64,000 bases of DNA from assembly GCA_008632985.1 (NCBI GenBank), contig QPGO01000184.1, positions 62,001 to 126,000 of the forward strand. The letters run 5' to 3'. This document shows, in pieces, positions 1,900 through 64,000 of the stretch. This DNA is from Psammoneis japonica. Lineage: Eukaryota. Position 1 is the stretch's first letter. Each line of letters begins with the position of its first letter. The notes under the pieces were generated by a model. That model did not search any database. It was not told where the DNA came from and worked only from the letters and a program-made list of their open reading frames with translations. Both the position numbers and the translations under genes were made by a program.

Positions 1900-4640
1900 T
1901 TCAACTGATGTGAAACAGCCATGCCATGAGAGTCTGCAACTGGGTGCAGAGTGGTTGTCACCTGAAAGAAGAAATAAGAGGAAAACATGCCTCTGGAACG
2001 GACTGGAAATGGAGGCACATTGTCGCCACAAAAGAAGAAACAAGAGGACACTGCTCATCCCAACAAACCTCTTCTGAGCAGACTGGAAAGAGGATCAAGC
2101 AAGCTCTCCTCAAACTGCAACAGCAGCATTGGCGGACAAACTGTTGGCATGGTTGGCTTGGGTTTGAGCACAGCTGGCCTTCAAAGCATGTTGGCCTTGG
2201 CAATGTGCCCATCTGGACTTGAGTCAAACCAGGTTGCCAGGTTGGCTTGGGCAAATGAGAGGGTCTCCACACATCAGCCCCCCATCCAGCATCCGCCTTG
2301 TGTTTGTGGCAAGTTTGTTCTTCTCCCAACCATTGGAAAAGGCACGTGAGTCATTGTGCTGCTTCGTGACTGCAAACAAATGACAAGAGGCTGAAGCCTT
2401 TGTGTCTGCCCATCATTCCCCAACAGGTTGCCCCCACACTCTGGTGTTCTGCACTGTGAGATTGTGCATGAGTTTGTGCTGCTGCTTGAAGCCCGGAGGA
2501 CAATTGACAAGAGGCCATCTGGGATTGCCAGATTGAGTGCCACATCTGTCCAAGCCCTGACAAGCAACCCTGCTTCCACATTTGCACTGCCCCATGGCAG
2601 CAAAAGCTGCAGCAAGTTCAAGTGCAAGCTGATGCCACTGCTTTGGTTGGAGCAATTGACAAGAGGCCATCTCTCATTCCTGCTCAACTCCAGTGGGCGG
2701 CTTTGCATTGCTGCTGCTGTGCTTTTTAAAACATCCTCCTTGGTTGCTCTGACCCCAAACCACAATCAGCACATTGCCTCATCTCAAAGAACCACCCCCA
2801 GACTGCCAACTGCAACCCAGAAACCACTTTCTCAGATTCCCATCAGCACATGGTGTGCCCTTTTCTTGACCACACAACCACAGTGAAGTGACAATTCTGT
2901 CTCTGTGTGCAGGAAGGCAAGAGCAAGAGCAAGGTCAGCAGATGAAATGCAAAACAAAAATTGACAATGTGACACACCTTCACAACAAGAAAACACACAA
3001 ACACCTCACTTTCTGCAGCAACAAAGCCAGCAGCAAGCAGAGCACCCATGGCCACTGCAATGAGAGCCATGGTTAAAAGAGAGACACAAGAAACAACTCT
3101 TCCATTTTGCTTTCATGTTGTTTGAGTTGATTGTCAGAGTCATGAGCAAGTCAAGAGAAAACAGAAAATTAAGCATCGGATTGCACATGTGCCAGAAACA
3201 CACAAAATCCCATGGAGCCACCAGGCCTTGAGTCTTCCATGTCTTGGTGTGCTCTTGATGCCAGGCAGGTTTTGCTGACTTTCCCCAGTGGGGGATCAGA
3301 CATTTTCCAAATGTCAGAGCTGGTGCAGACATGACAAATTTTCCAGAAAAAGACAAGCAGCAAATTGATCTTACAAGCATTATGGTGAGGTTGCTTGTTC
3401 TTTGATTGTTGTTGTGGCAGAAATGCAGCATGTTCAACATTGCATGGTGGTTGCCAGTCGTGTGTGTTTGTTGGTTCTTGTCAGATCTTTGTGGATGCAT
3501 GCCAGATGCAGATTTTCAACATTTCCAAACAAATGATCCTGTGTGTTGCTTTCTGTTTTTGCATCTTTGCCTCTTCATTTGTGTTGCCAAAAGATGCTGC
3601 AAGGATCTTCAGTTCTTGCTGCTCACTGCAGAACTCTGCTTCATTCCGTGCGTTCAGCCCACGTCAAAGTCAATCTCTTTGGATTCGCCATGTGTGGTCT
3701 CAGCTTGATTTAAAATGAGGCAGGCGTTCCACATGCAGAAGGGCCAAATGACTCCATGCAGCAACAATTTGAGGCCATGTGCAATGTGCTCAAGCACTGA
3801 GTTTGCTGTTGTCTGCTGCCAGCAAGCCAAAAATGACATTTGTCATGCATGCTCTAGATTGCCTTTTTGCCTTTTTTGGGAGTTGCCCGAGTTGTGAGAA
3901 GCCCCGGGTGGACACCATGCAATGCATTGTGTTGAAAACCATGCATTGACAAGATGGGAAGAGCATCTCTTCCTTCTCAAAAAGACCCTGTGATGGACTT
4001 GAGCCATCTGCGGAAGTCTCAATGCGAGCTGCACACCAGCCTCAGGAATCCGACAACTGTCGTGAGCTGCTTTGCTTGTGATCAGGTAACCACTCAAACA
4101 GCAGACTCAGCTCAAGTGACCATGTGGTCAGGACACATGCTTGCCACAGCAGAGTTGTTCCCACTCTGCCAGCTCTGAGTCAAAAGAAGCATCAGAGAGA
4201 AGAGTATGCACAGTTGCTGTGGAGAAGAGCAAAAACTGATCATCTCTGGGTGTTGAATCAAATCACAGCCAATGTTCAACATGTCAATCACACAAGTGAG
4301 CAAGACAGCTCATGTGCACTCTTTGCTAGCCAGTCTGGTTTGAATTCTAGCTGTGCCGTGCTCTTTGTTCGACAAGGAGCTTTGCCAAAGTCCCGACCAC
4401 TTCTTAAATCTTTTCAATCACTCCATCAACTGTGGGAATTTTCAGCACCACTTTTTTGATTTTTCATAAGATGTTCTCAATCATGAACTTGCGTGCTGCT
4501 TGTGCTTGTCATTTGTGCGTGGACAGCTGCATCAAGTGCTTTTTGTGGCAGTGGAGCAGACAATGGCTCTCCGGCTGGTCCAAAGCATGTTGGATTGGGA
4601 CTTGCATCATCGCACCGAGTCTGGTTCAACCTTTAAAAGC
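1900..4640. other. TpA-depleted, TpG/CpA-rich hypermutated block A (degenerate sequence)
   Basis: TA nearly absent; survivors often in ttaa/ctag (e.g. ~2727, 3073, 3710, 3854, 4634); ORFs are short, Tyr-poor and Cys/His-rich; normal TA density resumes at ~4649. Confidence 0.85.
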
Positions 4641-4968
4641 TTGGTGCTGTACGATCCGTAGTTTTATGTCATTCCTGCTGTTACCGGAGACGATTACTAT
4701 GCTGTAGCCCTACAATTTGAAGTGCTCATTTATTTCGATTCTCTCGATAAAATACGAAGCTTGTGGTCTCTCCAAGGTGGATGTGCTTCTCATGTTGGAT
4801 CTAGAACAGCCCAACTATCTGTATCCCATCAAACTATCGAAACTGACAGAAAAACTGTTGGAAAGTAGCCTCTCTCTCTCTCTCTCTAGACCATATATGC
4901 TCCATTTAGAGTACTATATTATTTGAGTTTAGTATAACAAGGCGAACCATCAAAAAGCAAGGCATATT

Positions 4969-6024
4969 TTAGAGACTACCAAGCTTGTCCCACGCCACTT
5001 GTCCAATGGCTGCATCCTGGGCGCCAGTTCCGGTAAGATCCACGACAATGATTTCGTTTCCTTCACGACCCGGCTTGTCCCCATTGACAATGTCACCAAG
5101 CTCTGCGTACACATCATCCTCCGTCATGACGCCAGCCTGCAAAGCTCCTCGGAGTTCGCCTACTCTCGAAGTCTGCTTGGTAAGGTCCGGAATGTATTTC
5201 GATGCCTTGAGAACATCATTGGGAATTTCTTGCTTGGTGGGTTGGTCAGATCCAGACGCAATGATTGTGACACCCTTGGGATTAAGCCAATCTTTTTCCA
5301 ATACATGTTCTCCTCCTGGAGTTTGGGTAAAGATAACATCAGACGTTTCGCAGAGTTCTTTTGCGGAGGATGCGACTGTAAATGGCATTCCAAGCTCTTC
5401 TTCCATATCCTTGGCGAATTCTTCCGAGCCGGCAAGACCAAAGGCAATGCCCTTGAATGGACGAACGGCAGCAGCGGCGCGAGCCATGTTGCGAGCAATA
5501 GCTCCACAACCGATAAAGCCAATAACATCTTGTTCCGGCGAAGAGCAGTACTTCAAAGACACTGCACCCGCAGCCCCAGTACGTAGATCTGTCATGAATC
5601 GATTTTCTTGAAAGACTCCAAGCGGTGCACCCGTCACAGCATTTACAACAACAAAGATACCGGAACCTGGAGGAAGGTTCTTCTCGGCATTCTTGTAGAA
5701 CGAGACCATTGCCAACTTGACTGTAAAAGTTGGTGTTCCAGAAACATACCCACCCTTGATATGACAATCTCCGGGACCAGCCGCAGGAGACTCTTCAATT
5801 CCAATGTGCATGGGAAGTGGAACGTCCACCTTTCCTTTGGCTAACGCCTTGAAAGCCTCCTCGACACTGGAAATAGCATCGGCGACTGTAAGGTTTGAAG
5901 TTACCGTTTCGTAGTCAAACAACTTTGGTGGTGGAAATCCAGCAGTGGCAAAGGCTCTTGTCGCCACACCACTAGTCATGGCGGTGCGGCGAACGGCATG
6001 TCTCGCAAACGTTGACAGCAACAT
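4969..6024 (-). CDS. Ornithine cyclodeaminase/mu-crystallin family protein with N-terminal mitochondrial-type presequence
   Basis: 351 aa intact ORF; motifs HIKGG, TDLRTGAAGAVS, GFIGCGAIA (Rossmann), DLTGTGAQDAAI; Arg/Ala/Thr-rich N-terminus. Confidence 0.92.
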   Translation of the reverse strand: MLLSTFARHAVRRTAMTSGVATRAFATAGFPPPKLFDYETVTSNLTVADAISSVEEAFKALAKGKVDVPLPMHIGIEESPAAGPGDCHIKGGYVSGTPTFTVKLAMVSFYKNAEKNLPPGSGIFVVVNAVTGAPLGVFQENRFMTDLRTGAAGAVSLKYCSSPEQDVIGFIGCGAIARNMARAAAAVRPFKGIAFGLAGSEEFAKDMEEELGMPFTVASSAKELCETSDVIFTQTPGGEHVLEKDWLNPKGVTIIASGSDQPTKQEIPNDVLKASKYIPDLTKQTSRVGELRGALQAGVMTEDDVYAELGDIVNGDKPGREGNEIIVVDLTGTGAQDAAIGQVAWDKLGSL

Positions 6025-6227
6025 GGCGACAGTTCAAGCTCCGAAAGATTTGTGTCGGTTCATCAGCGACGACCAAAATTATTTGTACCTGATTTCTACG
6101 TAGATTCTACGTGATCCTATGAGGTAAAGATGACGGAATAGTGACGTAGACAGAGGCTGACGTCATATCATGCACACAGGTAATTGATTCATTCGACTGG
6201 TTGAGCACGGGAGGAACAGATGATAAG

Positions 6228-6330
6228 ACTCGAGACTCACTTTACTCTCTACTACTCTAGCTCTAGAGCTACTCTCTCTAGAGAGTAGAGAGTACCGGTA
6301 GAGACTACTCTCTCTACTCTCTAGAGAGTA
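6228..6330. promoter_or_regulatory. TA-rich palindromic CTAG/CTCTAC/TACCGGTA island upstream of the OCD gene
   Basis: ctctagctctagagctactctctctagagagtagagagtaccggtagagactactctctctactctctagagagta, ~200-300 bp upstream of the ATG at 6024; regulatory role is inference. Confidence 0.4.
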
Positions 6331-6631
6331 AAAAGATTTAGGTTGGCGAGCCTACTGGTACAGGAAACGCAAGAGCGCTACAGTACTGTATGTCTATCCA
6401 TTGTTCATAGCCTAATCATCATGTACAGTTGATATTCAAAAATGGAAAATAGTTGTAGCTGTCGCAGAAGACTTCAAAGAACCTACTGCTGTGGAACTCG
6501 TCTCATTTAGGCAGTAGCTTCTGGTTGGTTGTCTTGAAACTAGGTTTATCTTCAAATTATTGGCTTATTAATTAGCACTGTTGGAATCGGTGCGTAAAGG
6601 TAGCCGAATGAAAGAGAATATTTGCTGTCGT

Positions 6632-7365: not shown

Positions 7366-8602
7366 GCGATGGATTTTTTCATTATTTATATAAAAATAAG
7401 TTTGCGATTCTTAAAAATAAATTTCACGACTGGCCTCCACGTGGATCTCCAAACGGCCCCAAAGGAGGCAAGCCCTTTCCGTTTCAACGGCAGACGTTAT
7501 TTTTAAATTTATTTAGCCTCGCCGGAACTGTCATCCAACGCATCGTGCGTTGCTCTTCTCTCGTTTCTCGTTTTGTTTCTTGTACATGCAGTGTATGGAA
7601 TAACTTCCACGATGATGGTGTTCCATGTCTACATCATGGTCTCGAATCCCATATGCTGCCAGAGGGTCCGTTTGTTCAGGAACTACACAACGTCGGTGGA
7701 CAACGCTCGCACAGCAGTGGCATTTCGAATCTCAAGATGGCAGGGGTAAATCAAGACAGCGACGGTGCTCCTGACAACGAAGTTGAAGTTATTCAAGTCA
7801 TCCATCCCAATGATGGGAATACCGAGCAACACAACGAAGTTTCGAACAAGGATTCCGACGATGACATTGTTGACGTCTGCTCCAACAACGATGGCAGGAT
7901 CGAGTGCGACAACGATGATTCGATCTCGGATGATGAAGTTGAAGTCATTCAAGTCCACCATCACACCTTGAGAGCGTCTTTCAAGCCATTCCTAATTGCT
8001 GGTGCAGCGTCGGCCATGAGTGTTGTGGTGGGAAATGAATTCGGAGCTGCCTTGAGCGCCGCCTCGGCTGCAAACTTGAAGTCCTTGCCTTTTTCAGAAT
8101 TTGGTAACGCCATGATGACAGGATGGCAATGGCGCTCCGCGTCGTCCACACCCATCATTATCACTGGATAGCCGGAACTCAGTGGCTTGTACGTGCCATC
8201 TAAGTTGCACCTTGAAGTCAGTTGGAACTTTCGCAGTGGGCGCTTTGTCGACATGACAATTCCGAAATCGTCTTTTGATGTGATGTGACAATCAAGGATG
8301 AAAGGCTCATCGTCGCCCAAACCGGGATCATTGACATCTTTCTTCATCTCGTCGCAATGTCGTTGAATCTCTGACACGGCTCCTCCTTCACGTTTACGAC
8401 GGTTCTTCAAGCAAGTCTGGACTTCTTTGTGGCTTGGTAGATTGCCATCGTTGGAGAGAAGATTCTGCTCTGCTAGATGTTCGTGAGGCAAGCCAACCAA
8501 TTGACACAAGATTCCATCAGCCGTCTTGGCATCTACATTTTTCTCAATGTGCTGCTTCTGCTTGTAAGTCAATCCTTGCTGTCGAGTGCTGTGATCCTTT
8601 GT
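7366..8602 (-). mobile_element. Mutator-like (MULE) DNA transposon, partial; transposase fragment ~7961-8602
   Basis: Minus-strand peptide LDGTYKPLSSGYPVIMMGVDDAERHCHPVIMALPNSEKGKDF...LMADAAPAIRNG matches the MULE DDE core; AT-rich terminal segment 7366-7520; sequence absent at the equivalent site in copy 2 (10615). Confidence 0.85.
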
Positions 8603-8603
8603 N

Positions 8604-9274
8604 AGTTCTTTTGCGGAGGATGCGACTGTAAATGGCATTCCAAGCTCTTCTTCCATATCCTTGGCGAATTCTTCCGAGCCGGCAAGACCAAAGGCAATGC
8701 CCTTGAATGGACGAACGGCAGCAGCGGCGCGAGCCATGTTGCGAGCAATAGCTCCACAACCGATAAAGCCAATAACATCTTGTTCCGGCGAAGAGCAGTA
8801 CTTCAAAGACACTGCACCCGCAGCCCCAGTACGTAGATCTGTCATGAATCGATTTTCTTGAAAGACTCCAAGCGGTGCACCCGTCACAGCATTTACAACA
8901 ACAAAGATACCGGAACCTGGAGGAAGGTTCTTCTCGGCATTCTTGTAGAACGAGACCATTGCCAACTTGACTGTAAAAGTTGGTGTTCCAGAAACATACC
9001 CACCCTTGATATGACAATCTCCGGGACCAGCCGCAGGAGACTCTTCAATTCCAATGTGCATGGGAAGTGGAACGTCCACCTTTCCTTTGGCTAACGCCTT
9101 GAAAGCCTCCTCGACACTGGAAATAGCATCGGCGACTGTAAGGTTTGAAGTTACCGTTTCGTAGTCAAACAACTTTGGTGGTGGAAATCCAGCAGTGGCA
9201 AAGGCTCTTGTCGCCACACCACTAGTCATGGCGGTGCGGCGAACGGCATGTCTCGCAAACGTTGACAGCAACAT
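8604..9274 (-). CDS. Second (3'-truncated at the N) copy of the ornithine cyclodeaminase gene; probably allelic/assembly duplicate
   Basis: Same sequence as 5354-6024; cut at N8603. Confidence 0.7.
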
Positions 9275-9881
9275 GGCGACAGTTCAAGCTCCGAAAGATT
9301 TGTGTCGGTTCATCAGCGACGACCAAAATTATTTGTACCTGATTTCTACGTAGATTCTACGTGATCCTATGAGGTAAAGATGACGGAATAGTGACGTAGA
9401 CAGAGGCTGACGTCATATCATGCACACAGGTAATTGATTCATTCGACTGGTTGAGCACGGGAGGAACAGATGATAAGACTCGAGACTCACTTTACTCTCT
9501 ACTACTCTAGCTCTAGAGCTACTCTCTCTAGAGAGTAGAGAGTACCGGTAGAGACTACTCTCTCTACTCTCTAGAGAGTAAAAAGATTTAGGTTGGCGAG
9601 CCTACTGGTACAGGAAACGCAAGAGCGCTACAGTACTGTATGTCTATCCATTGTTCATAGCCTAATCATCATGTACAGTTGATATTCAAAAATGGAAAAT
9701 AGTTGTAGCTGTCGCAGAAGACTTCAAAGAACCTACTGCTGTGGAACTCGTCTCATTTAGGCAGTAGCTTCTGGTTGGTTGTCTTGAAACTAGGTTTATC
9801 TTCAAATTATTGGCTTATTAATTAGCACTGTTGGAATCGGTGCGTAAAGGTAGCCGAATGAAAGAGAATATTTGCTGTCGT

Positions 9882-10846: not shown

Positions 10847-13800
10847 CTACGATGATCCTGATCCAGAGCCCGAGCCCGAGCCAGAGCCTGAGCCAGAGCT
10901 TGACTTCATTTTCTGCACCTCCAAGTCAAGATCTTTCTTTAGTTCCTTTGCCTCGGCTTCCTCTTGCTTCTTTCTGGCTTCTGCCTCATCTTCCATTCTC
11001 GCAATAGCATCCTTCTCATCTCGCGAATCCAAGTCTGAATTCTTCATCGCTTTCTTTCTATCTTTCAGTGCATCCTCCGCCTTCTTGATCTCGTCTTCTT
11101 TCCAGGCCTTTACTTCTGACCAGACCATAAGTGAAAGCCTGTACTGATGTTTGCTAACCACGCGGTACTTGTACAAAGCTATGCAATAGTTCTTCAGGAC
11201 TTCGAGACCTTCTTCCGCGCTCTTTTTTGTTTCGCAGGCTTCGACAAATGTTATGTACTGCAGCATTTTGTCATAGTACTCGGTCCGAATTCCCGAGTTC
11301 TTCAACCTGTTGCACTTCGAACACTTGAAAGTTTCCTTGGGCGGCGCAGGCTCAGACAAGGCATCACCATCTAGTGACTTTTCGCATTGCCAAAGCTGCT
11401 GCCGGGAGTGGTGTAGGTTCTAGTGACGGCTTTCTTGTTGGCTCGGAAGGTGGAGACGGCGTTGGTTGCGGTGTTGGACCTGGCGATGGAGGTGGTGTAG
11501 GCGCAGGAGTTGGTCCAGCAGTTGGAAACTGTGTTGGCTCGTCTGTAATCCGTTTTGTTGGCTCTGACGTAGGATTCATGGTCGGAACAGGAGTTGGAAG
11601 AGGGGTAGGTCCAGGTGACGGCATTTTCCTAGGGAACGGAGTCGGCCTGGCCGAGGGCGGTAGTGAAGGTGCCGGAGTAGGATTCATGGTTGGAGGACGT
11701 GTAGGAAAGGAAGTCGGACCCGGTGACGGATTTTTGGTTGGCTCGAGTGATGGAGACGGCGTTGGTTGGGGTGTTGTTGGTGTTGGACCTGGCGATGGAG
11801 GTGATGTAGGCGCAGGAGTTGGTCCTTCTGTTGGGAACTGTGTTGGCTCGTCTGTTTTCCGTTTTGTTGGCTGTGACGTAGGATTCATGGTCGGAACGGA
11901 AGTTGGAAGAGGGGTAGGTTCAGGAGACGGTTCTTTCGTTGGGAGACTCGTCGGGAGCGGAGTCGGCCTGGCCGAGGGGGTGGTGAAGGTGATGGAGTAG
12001 GATTCATGGTTGGACCTCGCGATGGAGGTGGTGTAGAAGCAGGAGTTGGTCCTTCAGTTGGAAACTGTGTTGGCTTATTTGTTTCTCGGTTTGTTGGCTC
12101 TGGCGTAGGATTCATGGTCGGAACAGGAGTTGGAAGAGGGGTAGGTCCAGGAGACGGTTCTTTCGTTGGGATACTCGTCGGGAACGGAGTCGGCCTGGCC
12201 GAAGGCGGTGGTGAAGGTGCCGGAGTAGGATTCATGGTTGGAGGACGTGTGGGAAAGGAAGTCGGTCCCGATGACGGCTTTCTTGTTGGCTCGACCGATG
12301 GAGACGGCGTTGGTTGCGGTGTTGTTGGTGTTGGACGTGGCGATGGAGGTGTGGTAGGCTCAGGAGTTGGTCCTTCAGTTGGAAACTGTGTTGGCTCGTC
12401 TGTAATCCGTTTTGTTGGCTCTGACGTAGGATTCATGGACGGAACGGAAGTTGGAAGAGGGGTAGGTTCAGGAGACGGTGCTTTCGTTGGGAGACTCGTC
12501 GGGAGCGGAGTCGGCCTGGCCGAGGGCGGTGGTGAAGGTGATGGAGTAGGATTCATGGTTGGACCTCGCGATGGAGGTGGTGTAGAAGCAGGAGTTGGTC
12601 CTTCAGTTGGAAACTGTGTTGGCTTATTTGTTTCTCGGTTTGTTGGCTCTGACGTAGGATTCATGGTCGGAACGGGAGTTGGAAGAGGGGTAGGTCCATC
12701 AGACGGTTTCTTCGTTGGAGAACTAGTAGGGTGCGGCGTTGGCGACGATGATGGCGCCTGTGTTGGTTCGTCAGTAGGAAGCTTTGTAGGCTCTCTGGTG
12801 ACTGGTACTGAAGTTGGCCTCAGAGTAGACTGAATGGTTGGAGAGCCTGTCACATCTGAAGTTTCCGCGGTTTGTTCTGAGGTTCTCGTGAGGCCACAAT
12901 TTTCACATGTGGCGCGACAACCGTCAAATGCTGATACAGAGTTGTTCTCCGAGTCTATCCCAACCAGTTTGCATCGTCTATCTGTATTCCTAGCAACAAA
13001 CTTGCAGTTCCTTTTGGAACCATTGTTCATAACGTGCCTCCATTTTTTGTCATCGGTGCATGCTGATCCACTGTGTGGGTTGATTTCACCGTTCGAAGAA
13101 GGTTCTGTAGGTCGCCCCGTAGGTGAAAGTGAAGGAGCGCTGGTCAGAGAAGATGTTGGAGCCGTCGTAGGACTCGGAGTTTTGCCTGTCGGCGATGTCG
13201 TGGGTGACGCAGTCGGAGCTTTTGTCGGTGAACTTGTGGGAGGCATCGTTGGACTACGAGTCGGGGCACTTGTGTCTAGCGTTTTCTTAGAATCTGCTAA
13301 CGAACCTATTGAGCCCCAAGTATTCTGCTCGATCGCCACAGGGCATTCGCCAGGTGGGTCATACAGGCCGCGTTGTCTATCAAGGTCAAAGTAGTATTCA
13401 TTGTTCGATTTCTGCTTTTTGAAGGAGATGATCATCGGATCTACACCAACGTAGTCAGATACTTCGAACATTTGTTACTGTACAGAACACATCTGAGGCT
13501 CACCTGAAAAAGCACCCGCTTCAACCTCGATTGACGTAAACTTGTCGTTTCTAGGATCGGTCTGATATACACAAAATGTGTGTCCTACAGAGGTGAAACG
13601 AGATAGGGGAATGAATATCCGTGTCGTGTAAGCCAATCTCCACATCAACATTCATGTCATGAATCGACGGCTATTCAAGCGAGCGATGGCGTTCACCCTT
13701 TTAAGAAAAGAAAAAACTCACCATTTCCATGTAGATATAATGTTGGAAGTCCCGGGTAGTCATTGCGCATATGTCGTTGAAATGGTCGACCAAATTTCTC

Positions 13801-31973: not shown

Positions 31974-32019
31974 ATTGCACTTCAGAATTATGCGGGTTGC
32001 GCATTTGGTGGCTTAGTGC

Positions 32020-37500: not shown

Positions 37501-37541
37501 GCAAGAGCGTCAAAGCGGGACCGAGTCATTATTTCGACGCC

Positions 37542-51299: not shown

Positions 51300-51740
51300 C
51301 CAGCATCACTCTCAACGACACGTTCATCTTGTTCGTTTTGCACAAAGCTGCAGCACGGATTCGTGGCAACGTGGTGATCGTCATCATCATAGAAAATGGC
51401 ATGGCCCACACCCAAACCAAGCACCACGCTCATTTTAAAAAAGCTCCAAGGAAAAGGTCATGGTCACCAACATTAGAATGCACCCACAAAAGGCTTGGAG
51501 TGTGTGCAAGAGTGCAGCGAACATTCGTAGTGGTGGAGAGCCACCGCGACTGCTTGTTTGCTTGTTGTCATTGTGACGCCTCTTGTGGAGCACCTGTCGC
51601 CACTTGGCAACACCCTCGGTCACAATGACCAGAGCAAATGCCAGAACAAGAGCACCGCTAAATTTGACACGAGAATCTAGAATCCAACTGAGAAAGAACA
51701 AATTGAGGCAGTGTTGGTTGCCCTTGAGCGACAACCGAAA
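51300..51740 (-). pseudogene. Ctr-family copper transporter relic
   Basis: CLNLFFLSWILDSRVKF...LHTLQAFCGCILMLVTMTFSLELF / SVVLGLGVGHAIF: MxxxM and GxxxG motifs, with GY->GC and GY->GH; frameshift/stop at ~51435. Confidence 0.8.
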
Positions 51741-52199
51741 GCCTGCATTGTTTTACAGCACGTGAATCGAAATGTGCAACAGGTGTGTGAGAGAAGGAGG
51801 GAGAATGACAGATCATTTAGAAACATCGTTCATCAGAGACAACAGAATGCAACAAGTCCATCCCCAGCTCAGTGAGCTTGCGAGTGCGCGGGAGAACAAG
51901 AGTTCGAGTTGCACCTCGAGTTGTTTGAGGATGCAAAATCTCGGAGACCGTCGTTGAGAGGGTGGTCACCAAACACGAGAGACTTGACTTCAAAAAGACC
52001 CATCTTTCGATTTCAACACAACCACAACACCGTTTCTCTCCAAACCAAGGCCCTTGCGTGACCCGTCGACATCCTGAAAGTAACATCCGTGTCTTCCATG
52101 AATGAAAACGATGAAGAATAGCTCAAACAAGGCCGAGTGTGGGTCGGCGCTGCGTCATCTCCAACTGCCGCAGAGAGAGGGTGCCATTGGGCCCCGGAG

Positions 52200-53368: not shown

Positions 53369-55297
53369 TCAAGGGCACGAAGCCTATAAAGAAATCCAAC
53401 CACTTGTTTGCAGGAGTACCTTTACAGGAGAGCTGTACGGTAGTATCTCATGTCGGGGCAGAATCGAGTTTTCGACAGATCGCGCCAACAGATGACGATC
53501 CACCCTTCTTCTTGTGGCGCCGTCGATTACCACTTTCTATGGCGCAGCCGTAGGCGAATGCAAAGATCATGTAAACGCGGTCGTACAACTCCTGAAGGTT
53601 CGATTAAGTAGAGTTTGCGGCTGCTAACTTACTAAAGTTCTAGTCATCCCTCGCTAGCCTCCAGATTCCTTTTGCTTCCATCTCCAAACCCCATATCATG
53701 ATGTACACCTTCTCATAGACTACCTATGACACGCGTCGCCTCTTATTTGGCAGCTGACTCTCGCCATCCTCGCTAATCGAACGCTTCTTCCTCCCGAAAA
53801 CAGTGTGCCACTTCTTGAAAACCCACGCGGCCAACCGACTATGAATGCCCTTACCGAACCTTGCTTCGGCCGCCTCTTGTGCAGCAACGCGTTTTAAGTG
53901 CCCCTCCAATGTGATTATGGTTTGGCCAGAAAAGCGAGCACGAAGCGCCCCCCCCCNCACGAAGCGCCCCCAAAATGGCCTGCGCATTGCGACGTAGTGC
54001 GGTCCTATTCCCTTCTGCTTCACGTTCAGCAACCATAAATGTAGTGCCATCAACCCAAACGGGCTCGTAGTCTCCAATGACAGACAAACAACCCAGTAAT
54101 GTCCCGTGTGGAGACAGTGCTATCAATGCCGCAAACACAATAGGTGAATTCTTTTGACATGCCCGATTTCAACGGATCCATTTCAGGTTCTTCAAGATCG
54201 ATTGTGTACAGGCCAATGAAGAAGAAAACCTAGATTTGGCGAGAAACAATACGCAAGGGATAAGCTGAAGACGGGTGACTTTTCGTGAAACGATTGAGAA
54301 GACACAAGTAATGCTGTACCGACCTTGTTGCGTCCAAATAGTGTCTAACGTATTGATCATGCGTCGGCGCCAGCAGATGGACCAAGCTACCAAACCACGT
54401 TTGGAAGAATCGTCTTGTACGAAAGAAACGTCCGATTAGTTCGATGCGTCTGAATTGTCGGCATTATTATCGTCATCCTTAGAGTTTGCTTGCGCCTCGT
54501 CGATGCATCTAAATCATGATATTTGGCTCTAAACGTTCACCTTTCAAATCAAGGGTATTCTTGCACAAGGTCGCAAAAATGGTACCCGTCATGAAATCAT
54601 CAAACTTGGCCTCGTGTTCTTGTGTCGACAGGGGAGCTTCGTCATTTCCTTGATTGTGAAAAACAACGAGTGCTATGGATTCCAATTCAACTTGTCTTGT
54701 ACAATCAGCGTTTCATGCAGTTTCCGCAACGTTGTACCGTACTGTCACTACGAACCGTAAAATCCAAGCAGTACTCGCTCGAAAAGGACTTTGGTATCAT
54801 ACGCTGAGGGAAAGAAATCGTGAACAAGTCTCTTGGTTTCCTCGTACGAGTCGGGCAGCTTCTGGCATTGAAAAGTGCGACAACATAAACATCAAATCCA
54901 TCCATCCCATTATGAACCACAATTGGAACTTGGCGTCCCGTCCTGGTTACGGATACGTCACGTTCCAAATCAATCTCCTCATGCAGGCCTCGACAGGCAT
55001 TGGAGAGTGTGCGTAAAAGACACGCCAAAAGCTGACTTGTTCCAACATTAGGTTTTTTTCACTTTTCCTTGGCAAGTCGGATAGGACGTTGTTCTTGCTG
55101 CTCCGGATTCAACCGCCAAACCCGAATTTGATTGTGTGCGTCCGTTACCCCTCGTTCCAAAGTCAAGGCGGACATTCGGTTTGAATCGACTCGTAGAGGG
55201 TACGACAAAGATGAGTTGCACCGAGGCAACAAAAAGGTCATGGATCCAGAGCAGCAGCATCGCCTTGTCGTTGTGCTGCTCTTGCGGCGGCTCGGTT

Positions 55298-55422
55298 GGA
55301 CGAATCGATCCATTCACGGAGACTGGGCATGGCTCGTGCATGAAAGCCGATATCATCAATGGACGAATCGATCCATTCACGGAGATTGGCCATGGCTCGT
55401 GCATGAAAGCCGATGTCATCAA
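55298..55422. repeat. 63-bp tandem duplication
   Basis: ggacgaatcgatccattcacggaga...gcatgaaagccgat at 55298 and 55361. Confidence 0.9.
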
Positions 55423-56239
55423 GTCGTGTCAGTACCACCTTGCGGCAATTCTTACCATTGGGCATGGGCGACTCTTGTCCCTCGGCCTCTTTTTGCAACT
55501 GAATCAATTCCTCTTTATGCTTGGACATTAACATTTCGGCTCGTCCCGTCTCCAAATCATAAGGGGTATGCCTTCCTTGGGTTAGGGTTACCTCAACTAA
55601 AAAGTACCGCCGTAATAATCAGCGCCAGAGAAAGATCCTTTTCACTTTGCTTATTGAAATGTAGAGTCGACTGCACTCTAGAAGAAAAGGATAACTGGAA
55701 CTGGTTTCATCGTTGGTCAGGTACACATTGGAGACTATATCGTCTTTGTAAGCGGAGACGACACAGATATAATTCCTCCAATCCGGGTACCGTGATTACC
55801 GAGTTACATCACTCCGTCTCCTCGTCTTTACGGACACTGTGAAAAATCAACAGCTCATAAATCACTTGATGATGATTCAGTACTGCCATTGGATATCTCT
55901 GTCACATCGTCCTTGTGCTTCAGCTCGTACGTACAAGTATTATACCTCCAGTGCACGGCGACCTCATGCGATAGTCTTGTTCTTATTCTTGTCGATACAG
56001 CCACGCCATTGACAACCACTGCCACGAGTTCAATGATCAGTCAGCACATGTTGCCTCTACAATATGTCGGTGTTGCTGTTGTTGTTGCATAACGAAAATG
56101 ACGGGGCGCTGCGTTTGGGTTGAGGACATTGTCAAGATCGACTTTCCCCGTTTGCACTGAAAATATGCGTGGGTGGCGGCAATTCCTCATGGTTGATGTC
56201 GGTGTGTTTGGATGGTTGCATCTCAAAATTTAGTTAGTA

Positions 56240-56790
56240 CCCGTTTTTTTTTTTCGAAGAAAAACAAGAAATTCTCAACAACGCGCGCCAAATTTTCATT
56301 TTTTCCAGATTTTTCTGAGATTTTTTCAAAAAAAGAGTTCTATTACATATTCCTTCATTAAGAAGTGTANNNNNNNNNNNNNNNNNNNNNNNNNNNNNNN
56401 NNNNNNNNNNNNNNNNNNNNNNNNNNNNNNNNNNNNNNNNNNNNNNNNNNNNNNNNNNNNNNNNNNNNNNNNNNNNNNNNNNNNNNNNNNNNNNNNNNNN
56501 NNNNNNNNNNNNNNNNNNNNNNNNNNNNNNNNNNNNNNNNNNNNNNNNNNNNNNNNNNNNNNNNNNNNNNNNNNNNNNNNNNNNNNNNNNNNNNNNNNNN
56601 NNNNNNNNNNNNNNNNNNNNNNNNNNNNNNNNNNNNNNNNNNNNNNNNNNNNNNNNNNNNNNNNNNNNNNNNNNNNNNNNNNNNNNNNNNNNNNNNNNNN
56701 NNTTTTTTTTTGAAAAAATCACAGAAAAATCTAAAAAAATGAAAATTTGTGTTGGCGCTGGAGAATTTCTTTTTTTTCTACACAAAATTA
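56240..56790. mobile_element. AT-rich element with imperfect ~70-bp inverted repeats flanking an assembly gap (56370-56702); MITE/foldback-like
   Basis: aagaaattctc...caaattttcatttttt...gatttttctgagattttttcaaaaaaa (56266-56335) mirrored at 56703-56778. Confidence 0.6.
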
Positions 56791-57509
56791 GTAGGAACCT
56801 ACTAGATTTTTGGCAACCATCAAAAACACACCGATATCAACCATGAGGACCTCCGCCGCTCCGCCGCCAAGCGGCCCGCAACCAGCCAACCAGAACACGA
56901 TATTCGTGCATCTAAACAAAGTACAAAACATTCTGTCATCGATTTGGACTCGTGTGATTCAGAAGAGGGCTCAAAAAGCCCACGAGAAACCGAGGGTAAA
57001 GCAACATGCGAAAATCATCATTCACTTCGACAAACCGTGTTTGTTCCAAGCAAAAAGGGGTCTTCCAAAGAACCAAAGCCTAAAATCTCAGATGCAAGTT
57101 TGAAACTTTGAAGCCGAGTCAATAGTTTAACACAACTGCATCATTCACCCAGGAAATAGTGCCTTTTATCACTGTGTGCACATTGAAACCGATGGTTACT
57201 CCGGTTACGACGAGCTTCCCGGCGGTGCTTTCACACTCACAAAGACGAAGGTTGTTCGGAATTCTTTCTTCAAGTTGAAGGTGATGATTAACCTGTTTTG
57301 ACTGGAAAAGACAAAACAAGTTTTTGGTCATCTGGAAACTCCGGCGAGCATTCAAATTGAAAGAATGGTTTGGTTTGTTGTTAGATTTTGATTCTGCAGC
57401 AGCGAAAGACAAGCCGCACTCTTGATCCAACGTACTCTAGCATACTTTAGACTAACTATAAGAAGATTGCATTGGGGATTCATCTTATAGCAAAACTGCT
57501 GCTCTACAT

Positions 57510-58125
57510 ACGACTCGAGACTCTAGATATTTACTACTAGAGATGATACCACTCGAGACTACGAGTAGACGATGCCACTCGGGACTAGACGATACCACTC
57601 GACATGATACGATACCACTTGAGACTAGTAGAAATTTACTTCTTGAGACAAGGCCACTCGAGATTAGAAGTATATACAGTATTTACTACTCGAGACAACA
57701 CAGTACTACTCGAGACACTAGATATTTACTACTCGAGATGATACGATACCACTCGAGACTAGAAATTTTCTACTCGAGAGAATACCACTCGGGACGATAC
57801 CACTTGAGATTAGATACTGTACTTCTATTTACTACTCGAGACAACACAGTACCACACGAGACGATATTTGCTACTCGAGATGATGCCACTCGAGATTAGA
57901 CGCTACCATTTTGAGACGAGACGATACCACTTGAGCCGAGATATTTACTACTCGAGACGATACCACTCGAGATAAGATATTCACTACTCGAGACAACGTA
58001 GTGCCACTCGAGACAAAATTTACTACTATTCGAGACGACACCACTCGAAACTAGATGTGTGCTACTCGAGACAATGCAATTTCCACTCGAAACGGTACTA
58101 CTCAAGACGACACTACTCAAGATTT
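57510..58125. repeat. Irregular minisatellite built on CTCGAG (gataccactcgaga / atttactactcgaga units)
   Basis: Many ctcgag cores with short variable linkers; TA- and CG-rich. Confidence 0.85.
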
Positions 58126-58149
58126 TCAAATCACTAGTTACATCCATTC

Positions 58150-58674
58150 TTACAACTGTCCCTTGGCACGAACGATTTCCTTTAGCATAAAGTGCTTCTT
58201 CTTGCTAATACGCTGACAGGGCACAATCATGACTAAATCACCCAAGTTGGCCACCTCGTTTTCATCGTGTGCCATGAATTTCCTCGTGTATCGCTGTCGC
58301 TTTCGAATTTTCGGAACGATACGGTACCGATCCACGGCAACGTTGACCGTCTTGGTCATTTTGTCGCTCACCACCGTCCCCACAAGAGCGCCACGAGGAT
58401 AATCGCGTGGGGGGGAATGAATCAGGTCCCAACCCGGAATCGTGGACGTGTCGGCCAACTGATCATTCGACATTTCGGATAACTCCTCGGCTTGTGTGGA
58501 AAAGAAGAGATTTTTGTTCTGAAACAAGTGGCTAGCAGTGGCGGGGTTTCGTACTGACATGAGAGAACGGCTCTGAGGCGGTAGCGCAGTAGAAATGCTT
58601 CGTCGCGACGCCATGGATATCATCGATTTGCCTTGTCGCAAAAGATGTTCGCAACGAAGCATTAAGGATGACAT
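58150..58674 (-). CDS. rpsQ: Bacterial-type ribosomal protein uS17, nucleus-encoded, probably mitochondrial
   Basis: LVGTVVSDKMTKTVNVAVDR...KFMAHDENEVANLGDLVMIVPCQRISKKKHF; Arg/Ser-rich presequence. Confidence 0.92.
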   Translation of the reverse strand: MSSLMLRCEHLLRQGKSMISMASRRSISTALPPQSRSLMSVRNPATASHLFQNKNLFFSTQAEELSEMSNDQLADTSTIPGWDLIHSPPRDYPRGALVGTVVSDKMTKTVNVAVDRYRIVPKIRKRQRYTRKFMAHDENEVANLGDLVMIVPCQRISKKKHFMLKEIVRAKGQL

Positions 58675-58869
58675 TGTATATCAAATAAGGGTCGTTTACG
58701 TAGAGACGCAGCACAAAGACAGTGTTGATTTGTTTAGCTAAAGGCCGCTTCCCCGTCGCCGCGTTCGTCATGGGCACAGACCTTTCGCTCTCGCTCGGCG
58801 CTCGGCCTCTCAGCACAGCGCGCGGTGGATGGGCCATTCAGCTTTCTTACCAGAGGAGTCCCCCCCCCA

Positions 58870-61800
58870 AACAAAACTGTCTCAGTGACGCACTCCTGCT
58901 TGACGTCGAGCGACCCACAAGCGGATCTTGCCGTCATCCACTGCCCGCCAATTTCTCGTGCACCGCGCAGTGATGCTGTCTTCTGTTTCCAGTGTGGTGA
59001 TGACAAAAACACAGGCAATGACAACCTGTGGACATCCTTCTGTCCTGTTGCGTTCATGTCATTTGCCCGTGCTGCTTCCACTTGTCTGCAGTCTTTGACC
59101 GCAGGACACACTGTCTTTGTTTTGCTTTCCTGCAGCTGCTTTGTCCTGTGGCTGACCTTGGAGCGAAACCTTTGCTGAGTTTCCGGCCCTGCAATTGTGG
59201 ATGGGGCAAATGGTTGCCCTTCTCATGGAAGAGTGAACAGACAGAGTGAAAAGTGTTTGATGTTTACAAGGGCAACGGGATGTGCCGACTGTTTTTCCAA
59301 TTGTGCAAAAATGTCATCTCAAGCAGTGGAAGCTCAGGCAACACGTTGAAAGAATGGGTGGATGGGGTGTCACAGTGGAAGTTTAAAAGAGTCGTTCCGG
59401 CACATTTGGATGCTCCAATCAAGGTGGACCCTTCCAGAATTTTTCAATGTCTTTGCCTTTCTCCAAAAGGTGCAGAATGAAGTTTGCTTTCGTGGTGAGA
59501 TGCTCCATTCCTTCAGAAGGCTGAAGAAGGCCTTTTGAGCTTCTTGGTTTTCAAATCAAAGCTTGGCACCTTGAGGAGTCCAACGTGCAACATTTCATGT
59601 TTCATTTGGATCTTATGATGGAATGCAGAAAGCACACAGTGCATGTTTGCACAGCATCCAAGAACTGCTCTCACCAGCTGCCACCGCGCTGCTGCCGTCT
59701 CTGTTGAGTGCTGTCGTGTGCAACCCCTTTGGCGAGGAGCAATTGCTGCCCTGCTGGTGCCAAGGCACTTCTCACACTGCTGCTTTCACGGCATCATAGA
59801 CCAAGTCATGCTCTTGTTAAATGGACTCAACTGATGGCCTCGGATTGATTGCTTCGAGTCGATCACAGCAGGTTGACAACTGAATCAACAAAGATCAATC
59901 ACAACACCTCCCTGAGCAAGAGCCCAGGAACAGCAATGAGGTCATTCTCTTTCTTCCACACTGCGTGATGACAAAGTTTGAGCAACAACAATGGCGGTGG
60001 CAGCAATTTGTTTGTGACATTGTCTGCCCAGATGTGATCTCTCTTTAAACAACAGAAGCTGCTCATTTCTCATTCTTTTCAAGCACAATCTTGCTGACAA
60101 CCATGACAACATGATGCTGGGATGGATGCGCACTTGTGCTTCCCATGGCTTGGAGATGCTTGCAAAAATTTGCCAAAGTGTGTCACGGCTGTGCCTGGAG
60201 AGGGAGGCTCCAAAAATTCATCCTTTCTCAACAAGAAGAAAAAAGGAGAGTGTGCGGGGATTTTACAGCAGCATGACCCAACAACTTCAAGGATTGCAGG
60301 ACTTTTTGAATCATGACTCCCATGAGTGTCAGACAATGGTTTGTTTTGCAGTTGCTTTTGTTTGTTTTGTTGTTGTGAAAGGCTGTGGCAACGGGCAACA
60401 TGTTCCTTGTTGTTTCTTTCTTGTTGCAAGCTCATCTGTCTTGTTCCTGCAACAGTGGTGGCTTGTGTTGCTTTTCATTTTAAAGAGAGGTGGAAAAGTC
60501 CAAACCACTCTTGCACACATTGAAACATTGCACACTGGTTGTGCCTGTTGCCATTGCTCCACTGGCGAGAGCAGAGGAGACAAGTGCCCCTGCCAGAGAA
60601 AATCAAAGCTGCAGAGAATCTAGAGAGAATCTCTCTGTGACAGTGGCTTGATCTAGAGAGAGCAGTCATCACAAGCTCAATGTTTTAGAGCATGTTCCTG
60701 CACAGTTCGGATGCATGAAATGATGAAATGGTGCCGTCGTGTTTCATGCCCACAGCCAGCAGATTGCACTCACGAAGCGAAAGAAGCACGGTGGCTGCAC
60801 TGGGCAATGCGGAGAAATGTCAATTGATCAAAGCAAACAAACACATGGAAGGTGATCTCTCACCTGAATGTGTGGCTGAAGAAAACACAAGCCAAATTGC
60901 CGTCACTTCCAAATCTCCCTCTGACTCCCACAACATTGGCCAAAACAAACACCAAAACCTGCCATTGTTCTGCAGCCCCGGTTCCTTTCAGAAGAATCAC
61001 ACATCATGTCCAGCCACATGTTGAACATTGTAAAAGGTGACAACACCATCTTTGCCTCTCTCTGGCTGCACGATCGACATGGGTGATTCTTGGTTTTGGT
61101 GCGTTTCACACAGAATTCTGCATGTCTGGCACTTGACGTTGATGCTTCCTCTCGATGGATGCCTCAAAATTTGCTCTCGATTCTCTCACAATCTCTTCTT
61201 TGACGAGGAAAGCAGCACATTAAAGTCATCACCATGATTGCTTTCATGAACAATGTTGCTGTCATCTCACTTGGCATTGCTGCCAGTGCCGTTGGCACTG
61301 GTCCCTTGGCCTGCCCGCTTTTGGCTGTCTTTGATGCAACGGCGCAAGGTGTGTTGATTGCTGTGAAAGCAAGTCAAGACATGCTTCGCAGTTCTTTGGC
61401 TACAACCACGATTCATGTGCCAATCTCGAAAGCCATGATGACTCCTTTGTCTGCCTCCAGAACATCCTGCGCAACACCACACCAATGAGTGTGCCCATTG
61501 AAGCTCAAATCAGGTCGAGCATTCATTGTGTGTCTTTTGACCACAAGGACTTCAACTCCACCCTTCTTCACAACACCATTTGAAACTGCACGCCTCCAGA
61601 TGACATGCCTGTTGATGCTCTGAAAGCCTCGAGCTCTGTCTGCCAGCCCTCCTTCGACCTGTCCTTCAAGCACGAAATCGATTTGTCCAGCCGTTTTCAA
61701 AATGTCCTTCGAGAGAACACGCCCGCCGCAATGACTGCCATCCAGACGTTTTCCAAAACTTGCCAGATTTTGTCAAATTTCACCAGTGAGACCACATTGA

Positions 61801-64000
61801 GGCTTCACACTACATTCCATGAGTTCTCTTTGAAGACCAAGACTGTTCGTGAAACTGCTTCGACCTTGCACGAGATCATCCATGACTCCTTGAAGACCTT
61901 TGTCATGAAAGCACAAATTCGGGCTTGCATTTGGAAAGAATGTGTGATGATGACGTTTCAGACACCAAGATTGAAGAATTGAGTGACAGCTTTGTCACAC
62001 TTGTTCAAACTCAGGCTCGCACTCTGTGTGACAAACACGAGACAATGCCATTTCGGACACCCAAATCCAAGCATGTGGCTCGAACGATTTTCAGCATGGA
62101 CGAATCTTGAGGGACCCATCGCGACGGAGATTTTCATTCGCAATCAAAATGGGCCCCAGCCAGAAGCCGGAAATGTCAATGCTGTGCTGGGGATCAATGG
62201 TTTGACCACACAATGAGAGCGACGAGCATCAGCGTGCAATTCAGCTTGACACAGAATTTGTTCATTTGCTTCAGTGGAAAACTGAACTGTCGCAACCCTT
62301 CCTGAGCATGAAGCTAGAACTTGAAGGAAAAACCAGCTGCTGGGCCCTGTGCTCATCAAGATGATGACTTTGTTGCAGCAACTCAAGGATGACCACATCA
62401 TAAAATGGAGTCTGCTTGCCAAATGCACAGCACCAAAAGGAAGTCTTTCCTGCAACAAAAACATGGGATGGCGTGCCCCTTTTTCTGTCCAACCGCAGTT
62501 TAAAAAGCGGCTCGTCTCCTCATCATGGCGTGAGTCATGTTGGTCAATTACGACAACGGAAATGCTGGAAATGGATCTCATGCAGATCATGTGATTCATC
62601 CATCGTGTGTTGGAACGTGCGTCAAAACGATGTGCTTGTTCTTGAGAGAAGATCCAACAACAAATGCTTGTTGTTGTTGCACTCGACATGGCGACACTTG
62701 TCCCGGCATTGTGGGTCAGTGCCGTTGCAATGAAGTGTGGCTGCGATTGGTTTTTGTCGATGCTGCTGCCAAACGACATCTCTGGCAAGCAACAACATCG
62801 TCGTCCCATCACGAGGAAGCTGCTTTGTTCTTTGTTCGACTCGACTGTACAGTGCCGGCAAATGCACCGGCAACACCATGCTGTCACGCACTGTCAGCCA
62901 CTGTCACTCGCACTGATGCGTTCCAGCCCCAGGTGGGACTCCGTGTGACATTGGGCCCGTAGAATTCTACGTGCGAGCTCCACAGTGCAAGAATTTAATC
63001 AATGGATGTGTTTGTCTTCAACATCAAACAAACGGCCAAGTTTGTGGTGCAATCATGCCTCTTGCCACTCGACGTTTTTGCAACTTCGCCTGCCCTGCGC
63101 GATTCTTAAGACATTGTAGAATCGCGCTGCAACAAAAAATGTCAAAAGTTGTTGGATGGATCGCTCAATGAGTGTGCCGTAAAATGACACAAAATGTCAA
63201 AAAAATCACGTAGAAATCTGTGTGCGCGACATACGACGAGACTCAAAAAACTGTCGATGTCACAGTTCAGCAGTGCGAGGTCCCACCTGGACCTGGAGCG
63301 CATCCACTGTGACACTTCAGATGACACGCTTCCTGTTGTAAACCATGACACTGACTTTGTTTTGTCGTGTGATTGTTTTGTGCCTCCACAGATGATTGGA
63401 GTCAAGTCCCTTGACACCGGCGGCGGACTGCAAGCCGGCGAAATCAGAGAGCGCACATTCCACTGTGCAATGTCACCATTTTCGCCTTGAAAACGACCTC
63501 AAACTTGTTCGTTGAGAGTCCTTCACTCATGTGAGCGTAAAAGCTTTGGTCTGTAAGATCAGAAAAGTCCCCTTTTTTTAGACAGTCTAATCTCGTGAGA
63601 TGCCGGGAGAGCCTGTCGTCAGACAACAGACAACGCAACATGACGTCGACTGCACAGGCCCACGAATCCTTTGCCATGTGTGGAAGAATCACGCACATGA
63701 TTTGCATTGAACTTTTGGAAACATCCATCTCTGGGTGTTTTGCTTCCGGAAAAGAGCTGTCAGAACGCAAGCAACAGGCGCGACGAATGCTCGCCACTCA
63801 CCGGGAACGACTGCCCTGTCTCTTGGAATTGGCAATGCACCTCTGACCCAATGGCATCATGAAGGATGCAGCCATGAGAAGCAGGGCACTTGCAGCACCA
63901 TCAATGCCGCTCTGATGACAGCCGCACCTCATCGATTTGATCGCCATCGTGGGCACTGCAGGTGTGGGTTGCCGGGCAGGGACGGACAAGGCCGGAGAGG
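58870..64000. other. TpA-depleted hypermutated block E (runs off the window)
   Basis: TA nearly absent except ttaa/ctag-type sites; somewhat weaker after ~62800. Confidence 0.85.
59160..59480 (+). pseudogene. DUF4336-like protein C-terminal relic
   Basis: WGKWLPFSW...KEWVDGVSQWKFKRVVPAHLDAPI resembles the DUF4336 W.F.RIIPAH..AP motif; in-frame stops. Confidence 0.5.

Follow-up and report, generated by a model that had tools for sequence, protein, structure and literature searches.

Five TA-poor blocks among host genes

A 64,000-nt stretch of the diatom Psammoneis japonica genome (assembly GCA_008632985.1, contig QPGO01000184.1, positions 62,001 to 126,000 of the forward strand; hereafter the window, numbered from its first base) contains five multi-kilobase blocks in which the dinucleotide TpA, or TA, is nearly absent and TG and CA are abundant. 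The origin of these blocks is the subject of this report. Between them lie genes with long unbroken open reading frames (ORFs), encoding ornithine cyclodeaminase (two copies), a PT-repeat protein, a sulfotransferase, a Fam20C-like kinase, an aldose 1-epimerase, and an OSCA/CSC1-type channel. The named homologs of the epimerase all come from diatoms (Seminavis, Fragilaria, Mayamaea, Cyclotella, Thalassiosira, Skeletonema, and others), the best at 60% identity. This indicates that the window is diatom nuclear DNA and not DNA of Bigelowiella natans, a chlorarachniophyte with a related mutation pattern that is discussed below.

The blocks were traced with a sliding dinucleotide profile, and their edges were placed from the gaps between successive TAs. 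Block 1 (1976-4634, 2659 nt) has 13 TAs, an observed/expected (o/e) ratio of 0.07, with ratios of 0.19 for CG, 1.80 for TG, and 1.77 for CA. Block 2 (22173-26134, 3962 nt) has 10 TAs (o/e 0.04; CG 0.40, TG 1.67, CA 1.86) and is followed by an extension (26135-27300, 1166 nt) with 14 TAs (o/e 0.22), a CG ratio of 1.09, and a TG+CA ratio of 1.20. Block 3 (32015-37530) contains an N gap, and its 5412 nt without N hold 21 TAs (o/e 0.06; CG 0.37, TG 1.72, CA 1.74). Block 4, the largest (43609-52394, 8786 nt), has 35 TAs (o/e 0.06; CG 0.52, TG 1.66, CA 1.67), and block 5 (58849-64000, 5152 nt), which runs off the end of the window, has 33 (o/e 0.10; CG 0.59, TG 1.71, CA 1.53). By dinucleotide counts pooled over the five blocks, 25,971 nt without N hold 116 TAs (o/e 0.07), 690 CGs (0.45), 2735 TGs (1.70), and 2763 CAs (1.69), whereas the remaining 37,590 nt of the window hold 1649 TAs (0.62), with ratios of 1.00 for CG, 1.11 for TG, and 1.16 for CA. 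GC content is nearly equal in the two (0.485 in blocks vs. 0.468 in the rest).

This distribution is far from random. The longest TA-free run is 1601 nt (48170-49771, in block 4). When the same 1765 TAs were placed at random in 1000 trials, the longest run averaged 286 nt and reached 577 nt at most; in the same placements, TA-free runs of at least 150 nt numbered 27 on average and 39 at most, compared with the 61 observed. Local base shuffles gave a longest run of 122 nt on average, with a maximum of 176 nt. At all block edges, TAs that lie about 20 nt apart on one side give way within 100-200 nt to TAs that lie hundreds of nt apart on the other; at the right edge of block 1, TAs lie at -167 and 0, and beyond that there is one per 10-30 nt. 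The thresholds of the B. natans preprint (bioRxiv 10.64898/2026.01.13.699255), applied here, are passed by 23 of 64 1-kb windows, which form four clusters of at least three windows each and one run of two. A preliminary description of this DNA had reported five blocks almost devoid of TA and rich in TG and CA, often with sharp boundaries and with reduced CpG. The dinucleotide profiles reproduce the blocks and the abrupt switch in TA spacing, and they show that the CpG reduction, clear in the pooled counts, is uneven (o/e 0.04-0.93 per 500-nt window).

The blocks in read-derived contigs

Three public sequencing runs hold this stretch. They share a single sample, possibly the one from which the assembly was made, and contigs derived from them were compared with the window over 43001-63000. 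The single sample and the N gaps in the window give some room to the idea that a sequencing, assembly, or polishing artifact, or contaminant DNA, makes the pattern, and the preliminary description had named the raw reads as the place to look for such an artifact. The read contigs carry the TA-free sequence. In block 4, contigs at an identity of at least 99% cover 47174-50096 with three differences, 50579-51433 with three, and 51485-52127 with none, and in block 5 a contig covering 59214-61057 does not differ from the window at all. Another contig without differences (52104-52700) spans the right edge of block 4. Depths of the block contigs are about 39-74, on par with those of contigs over the adjacent genes. 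Within the scope of assembly and polishing of one sample, these contigs rule out an assembler or polishing artifact and a mis-joined contaminant, though formally not an artifact at the level of the reads. The pattern also switches on and off over 100-200 nt beside normal genes, and we know of no platform error that would convert only TA, on both strands, and spare TTAA. Altogether, we consider an artifact or contaminant a highly improbable source of the blocks.

Among the X1 contigs placed on 43001-63000, which includes block and non-block DNA, 304 of 1993 are at least 99% alike and 1689 are at 80-99%, so that much of this interval has diverged copies elsewhere in the genome. At 62344-63000 the summed contig depth is 42,840, compared with about 50-75 for single contigs elsewhere, and many loose contig ends fall at 62914-62985. 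Together these suggest a junction with a very high-copy element.

Direction of the change

A composition poor in TA could be native to the blocks, or it could have been acquired. The clearest evidence on this point comes from a frameshifted fragment of the DNA polymerase epsilon catalytic subunit (POLE), from the region of its exonuclease domain, which phmmer found in block 4 (45758-46591, minus strand). One frame of this fragment matches human POLE residues 281-575 (phmmer against solved structures, 9f6d_A, E 1.6e-21), a second frame matches yeast Pol2 378-564 (E 1.4e-08), and the third had no match against solved structures. For comparison, an exhaustive profile-free search yielded 150 relatives; 79 of at least 1700 aa were kept, and 78 with a region of at least 250 aa were aligned to the DNA by tblastn. 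We defined Tyr columns as codons with Tyr in at least 50% of the 70-78 aligned orthologs, which gave nine.

At these nine columns the fragment has His six times and Cys, Val, and Phe once each, and never Tyr. The codons are CAC, CAT, CAC, CAT, CAT, CAT, TGC, GTG, and TTT, so that seven of nine are one-step products of TAY (Y, pyrimidine) and none is still TAY. Other conserved residues are mostly retained (Phe 8/10, Leu 8/10, Gly 9/11, Cys 3/3), with 67 of 125 conserved columns kept overall. Codons at conserved Arg columns are CAT (His), CAA (Gln), TGC (Cys), CTG (Leu), and CGG (Arg), which is what CpG decay of CGN codons would do. When longer proteins were searched for the gene from which the POLE fragment derives, one distant match turned up, at 25% identity, and a search for related diatom DNA among metagenome contigs gave seven loci at 28-43% identity, none of them usable.

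Copies of the same sequence point the same way. Window position 46468 is the first base of a His codon, CAC, at a column that is Tyr in 91% of orthologs, and other contigs from the same organism give TAC there. Support for TAC, read as A on the plus strand, is 177.5 of a depth of 281 in X1, from three contigs, and 40.2 of 40.2 in X2. The 40 best-supported of 2056 differences between read copies and the window comprise 33 inside blocks and seven outside. Among the 33 in-block differences listed, nine have TA in the other copy and TG or CA in the window, and 11 have CG in the other copy and TG or CA in the window. Five run in the opposite direction (four with CG in the window vs. TG or CA, one with TA in the window vs. 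CA), and eight are of other kinds. The seven listed from outside the blocks include none in these TA or CG classes.

Repeats within the window offer two further comparisons. The first is a repeat with one copy at 4400-4860 (plus strand), which lies across the right edge of block 1, at 4634, and the other at 46870-47300 (minus strand) in block 4; 309 of 405 aligned positions are identical. To the right of 4634, the first copy has 15 TAs, and at these sites the block 4 copy has seven TG or CA, one TA, two other dinucleotides, and five gaps. Thus, 7 of the 10 ungapped TA sites are TG or CA in the copy that lies wholly inside a block. The second is an internal duplicate in block 2 (22399-22757 and 22967-23311, plus strand, about 90% identical), where 4 of 25 difference events set TG against CA at one and the same dinucleotide, as expected if an ancestral YpR (pyrimidine-purine) step had been converted separately in each copy.

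The bookkeeping of dinucleotides can be approached by simulation. When TA was converted in a context-dependent way in the rest of the window and 55% of its CG was converted as well, the result was a TG/CA o/e of 1.69, compared with the observed 1.70, without fitting, and a GC content of 0.477, compared with 0.485 in the blocks.

These results bear on the alternative that the composition is native or selected, the blocks being foreign or otherwise special DNA in which TA was never present, or DNA in which TA is selected against because of TA-targeting transposons or nucleases. Most of the block sequence is indeed without a homolog, Pfam is nearly empty there, and an ORF at 44300-45364 has no match, all of which would suit such DNA. 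However, a fragment of a universally conserved host gene has lost all of its conserved Tyr codons, seven of nine to CAY or TGY, copies from the same organism still have TA at the same sites, the excess of TG and CA equals the deficit of TA and CG, and the read depth of the blocks is that of genes. Native composition or selection is therefore scarcely plausible to us. The preliminary description had proposed that TA was converted to TG and CA in these domains by a second process, beyond the decay of CpG. The Tyr columns, the read copies (nine differences vs. one), the repeat pair, and the internal duplicate uphold the direction, and the same comparisons uphold a conversion that is distinct from CpG decay, additional to it, and confined to the domains.

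Properties of the process

Both strands are affected about equally, with 2735 TGs and 2763 CAs. Scatter between strands is close to the random expectation at 500 nt and 1 kb (chi-square per degree of freedom 1.13 and 1.21), with a slight excess at 250 nt (1.36). This symmetry is the main difficulty for the idea that transcripts of retroelements were hyperedited by an ADAR-like enzyme, with U before the edited A, and then reverse transcribed and inserted. ADARs do favor a 5' U, according to work cited in the B. natans preprint (bioRxiv 10.64898/2026.01.13.699255), and the many contigs at 80-99% identity on the blocks mean that parts, at least, are multi-copy. However, such editing predicts A-to-G changes on one strand, and the counts are even at the scales tested. 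Further, no reverse transcriptase, integrase, or long terminal repeat (LTR) was found in the blocks, the boundary of one TA-poor domain falls within a repeat copy, and the changes extend to fragments of host genes. We regard an RNA-editing origin as very unlikely indeed.

Loss of TA depends strongly on the flanking bases. Survival of each NTAN word, measured as its frequency in blocks relative to the rest of the window, is 0.71 for TTAA, 0.26 for CTAA/TTAG, 0.25 for CTAG, 0.15 for GTAA/TTAC, 0.07 for CTAC/GTAG, 0.05 for ATAA/TTAT, 0.03 for ATAG/CTAT, 0.02 for GTAC, 0.01 for ATAC/GTAT, and 0 for ATAT, which is counted by strand 248 times in the rest and never in the blocks. TTAA is thus nearly immune and ATAT is fully erased. 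The survival values are fitted by the product of per-strand escape values that depend on the base before TA (T 0.84, C 0.50, G 0.145, A 0.054); a purine two bases 5' of the A and a pyrimidine 3' of it are mirror images across strands, and the survival data do not separate them. NTGC words rose most in the blocks, and the His codons at the POLE Tyr columns are each preceded by a purine. Regressing the tetranucleotides of the blocks on those outside them was uninformative and gave a negative CG coefficient.

TA loss can be separated from CpG loss. Across 50 in-block windows of 500 nt, the TA o/e stays within 0.00-0.28 over the whole range of CpG values given above, and CpG thins gradually inward of the TA edges. 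The separation is clearest at 26135-27300, where TA is at 0.22 and CpG at 1.09. With TpA at 0.07, CpG decay is a component of the pattern but does not explain it. That TA is near zero even where CpG is barely lowered would mean either that TA is converted much more quickly than CpG decays or that its conversion is still running, because ordinary mutation would otherwise be expected to restore TA in old sequence.

This separation bears on a mechanism that the preliminary description had listed as a candidate, error-prone repair of the Pol eta type coupled to methylated chromatin. In such a scheme, a Y-family polymerase acting at methylated or damaged chromatin would misinsert opposite T at WA (W, A or T) and so give A-to-G changes, with no adenine deaminase involved. 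The A:T hotspot of Pol eta in antibody hypermutation is WA, and CpG decay in the same domains would give T:G mismatches that could start patch repair. However, WA includes ApA, and AA/TT is not depleted (o/e 1.26 in blocks vs. 1.11-1.15 elsewhere), nor is AG/CT raised (0.98/0.95 vs. 0.97). In addition, TA loss is nearly total and uniform while CpG varies widely, and TA has been lost from the CpG-intact DNA at 26135-27300. These observations weaken the case for Pol eta, which we judge unlikely.

Conversion of TA makes no new stop codons, because TGA can be reached only from TAA, which is already a stop. By the genetic code, it disables genes through missense, as when Tyr becomes His or Cys.

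What the blocks contain and what is spared

Six-frame Pfam scans of all five blocks, with stops written as X, found no transposon or virus domain, and blocks 1 and 2 had no Pfam domain of any kind. The sole match in block 3, PRIMA1, was rejected at 20.1 bits, under its cut-off of 38.6. Besides the POLE fragment, block 4 has a weak match to LRR_6 (50292-50360, plus strand; PF13516, E 8.5e-05, 22.8 bits vs. a cut-off of 23.4) and a fragment of a Ctr copper transporter with in-frame stops (51438-51701, minus strand; PF04145, E 9.9e-06, 26.6 bits vs. a cut-off of 25.3). Block 5 has a C-terminal fragment of the DUF4336 family (59337-59441, plus strand; PF14234, E 1.9e-06, 27.8 bits vs. a cut-off of 28.5), which aligns with positions 281-315 of the 321 in the profile. 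Neither LTRs nor terminal inverted repeats were found at the block ends, and blastn between blocks found small shared pieces only, which shows that the blocks are not copies of one another. Rfam had no match anywhere in the window.

Long ORFs in the blocks are a chance product of TA-free DNA, because TAA and TAG have been lost and TGA is the sole stop left; on both strands the blocks have 1243 TGA, 108 TAA, and 64 TAG triplets. In first-order Markov simulations of TA-free DNA, the observed ORF length was matched in 95, 14, 29, 1, and 17 of 200 runs for blocks 1 to 5. The outlier is a 355-aa stop-to-stop ORF in block 4 (44300-45364, plus strand), a length reached in 1 of 200 simulations; it has no homolog at E <= 0.01 and no Pfam family. 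The TA-depleted, CpG-normal DNA after block 2 has a 461-aa ORF (25820-27205, minus strand) with two Tyr and no Pfam family, and the extension includes a 185-nt tandem duplicate.

Repetition does not seem to suffice to mark DNA for TA loss. A direct duplicate of at least 1047 nt (5354-6400 and 8604-9650, 100% identical, 3250 nt apart), which includes the ornithine cyclodeaminase gene, shows no hypermutation, though it may have arisen very recently or be an assembly duplicate. A satellite at 57519-58146 is also repeated DNA that has been spared; its units of about 36-51 nt have a TA o/e of about 1.0 and a CpG o/e of 1.2-1.4, an N gap (55.6-56.7 kb) lies beside it, and block 5 begins directly after it. 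The preliminary description had proposed silenced or repeated DNA as the target, and the untouched duplicate and the TA-rich satellite weaken the repeated part of that proposal. In all, the choice of domains seems to follow neither mere duplication, nor recognizably foreign DNA, nor strictly CpG-depleted (presumably methylated) DNA.

Two of the neighboring genes have features of their own. The ORF of the second ornithine cyclodeaminase copy (7961-9274, minus strand) continues into a fragment of a MULE transposase. In the region of this fragment (7500-8750), the TA o/e is 0.21-0.37, TG+CA is about 1.3, and CpG is normal, with too few TAs for a context fingerprint; the dip in TA could mark this process at an early or mild stage, or it could be mere codon usage. 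The PT-repeat protein gene (11374-13471, minus strand) has repeat units spaced 227-321 nt apart, with a reference copy of 266 nt, a GC skew of +0.30, an AT skew of -0.23, and ordinary TA content.

Interpretation

In our assessment, the blocks very probably result from regional hypermutation at the DNA level that is specific for TpA and changes A:T to G:C, in addition to CpG decay. TpA becomes TpG, or CpA when the other strand is hit, and the two strands are hit about equally. The domains affected have sharp limits, are free of genes, measure from 2.7 to more than 8.8 kb, and have been left with almost no TpA. They have also lost CpG to TpG and CpA to a variable degree, the usual signature of 5-methylcytosine deamination. 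The comparisons above show the conversion and its direction, its symmetry between strands, its sharp edges, its dependence on flanking bases, and its separability from CpG decay. As for the chemistry, the simplest way to obtain exclusively A-to-G changes beside a 5' T on either strand would be an enzyme that deaminates adenine at 5'-TA-3' in DNA, leaving hypoxanthine, which is read as G; we hold this to be about as probable as not. A chromatin or small-RNA mark of silenced DNA might recruit the enzyme, and the role might be genome defense or gene killing, similar to what has been proposed for B. natans.

Several points weigh against hypermutation as an explanation, or limit how far it can be taken. 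The evidence is a standing footprint in one 64-kb window, in which no new mutation was observed, and the shared sample behind all the runs means that a read-level artifact may contribute. The polarity tests are small, with nine Tyr columns, 10 repeat sites, and the 33 best-supported in-block differences out of 2056. The sequence used for comparison, the rest of the window, is mostly coding, and the simulation built on it misses GpC (1.02 vs. 1.21) and ApA (1.16 vs. 1.26). TA loss outruns CpG loss at 26.1-27.3 kb, so a plain coupling to cytosine methylation fails. Finally, the perfect duplicate and the satellite are spared, and no recognizable transposon or virus gene lies in the blocks, so that any targeting rule or defense role would be conjecture.

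It is tempting to go further. Diatoms, which are stramenopiles, and chlorarachniophytes, which are rhizarians, might share an old chromosomal DNA editor of the adenine deaminase type, aimed at silenced domains, where it would permanently erase TpA. This would be natural, sequence-specific A-to-G editing of double-stranded DNA with a flank rule (ATAT best, TTAA immune), and it would provide a second, irreversible layer of inactivation beside cytosine methylation, working by missense and not by stops. We offer this broader idea tentatively, as a possibility that we would sooner doubt than accept.

Whatever its enzyme, the pattern has consequences. It is now seen in two lineages that are only distantly related, of which the second, the diatoms, is ecologically dominant and has by far the more saturated footprint, and this points to a widespread process. 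With so simple a signature, any protist genome can be scanned for it, and two lineages permit phylogenetic profiling for the responsible gene, which could be the first natural enzyme found to edit adenine in chromosomal DNA and would be of interest for base editing. In diatom genomes, such "ghost" DNA can make up as much as a third of a region, with its origin hidden from homology searches and with effects on gene prediction, repeat annotation, and molecular dating. TA erasure is also a mutation bias toward G:C, counter to the usual bias toward A:T.

Comparison with known systems

Fungal repeat-induced point mutation (RIP) resembles the diatom pattern in being a regional, dinucleotide-specific set of transitions in non-genic DNA, on both strands, that leaves sharp-edged, skewed blocks. 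The direction is opposite, however. RIP changes CpA to TpA, making TA and stop codons, whereas here TpA is destroyed and no new stops arise. RIP is triggered by sequence duplication of about 0.4 kb or more; in the window, duplication seems not to be enough, with a perfect duplicate of at least 1047 nt left untouched. Diatom transposable elements are reported to be cytosine methylated (PMC9998398), and the available text of that paper mentions RIP only in connection with DNMT4. Deamination of 5-methylcytosine accounts for the change of CpG to TpG and CpA in the blocks, but it cannot remove TpA, and the two losses are separable here.

Among known enzymes, TadA and ADAT2-3, ADAR, and the engineered TadA base editors provide the closest chemistry, with adenine changed to inosine, which is read as G, and a preference for U or T 5' of the target A. 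The natural enzymes, unlike the process proposed here, act on RNA, and we know of no natural enzyme that has been demonstrated to edit chromosomal DNA at TA over kilobases. AID/APOBEC enzymes and the Pol eta phase of antibody diversification share with the diatom pattern an enzyme-driven, local hypermutation that serves defense or diversification. However, they target C, in WRC or TC, and are often strand coordinated, whereas here the target is A:T, exclusively at TA, and the strands show no coordination at scales of 500 nt or more.

The closest parallel is B. natans. In a mutation-accumulation study (Mettrop et al., bioRxiv 10.64898/2026.01.13.699255), the main text of the preprint reports that 231 of 302 nuclear mutations fell in giant-virus and virophage regions, that 230 of those 231 were A-to-G or T-to-C, all stated to be on TpA, and that an ADAT2 homolog is a candidate enzyme. 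The main text has no mention of diatoms or CpG, and a search of its terms found no flank analysis beyond TpA, though the supplements may hold one. Our search of the literature for TpA hypermutation or a TpG/CpA pattern in diatoms found no report, though most subscription journals were not covered; the author of the preliminary description had likewise known of none.

The two cases are alike in that A-to-G or T-to-C changes at TpA give TpG or CpA, depending on the strand, and are confined to certain nuclear regions. They differ in host, a chlorarachniophyte there and a diatom here, and in the kind of evidence, which there consists of de novo mutations and here of a standing footprint. The targets in B. 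natans are integrated giant-virus and virophage DNA, whereas the diatom blocks have no recognizable virus or transposon gene and include host fragments that were hit. Erasure is far fuller in the diatom, with a TA o/e of 0.07 compared with a rho of 0.45 reported for the nucleocytoplasmic large DNA virus (NCLDV) region of B. natans. In the diatom the same domains also lose CpG, and a flank rule is seen, with TTAA spared. The phenomenon in general has thus already been described, in a 2026 preprint on B. natans, and the diatom case appears to be new, together with its flank rule and a CpG decay that can be separated from the loss of TpA.

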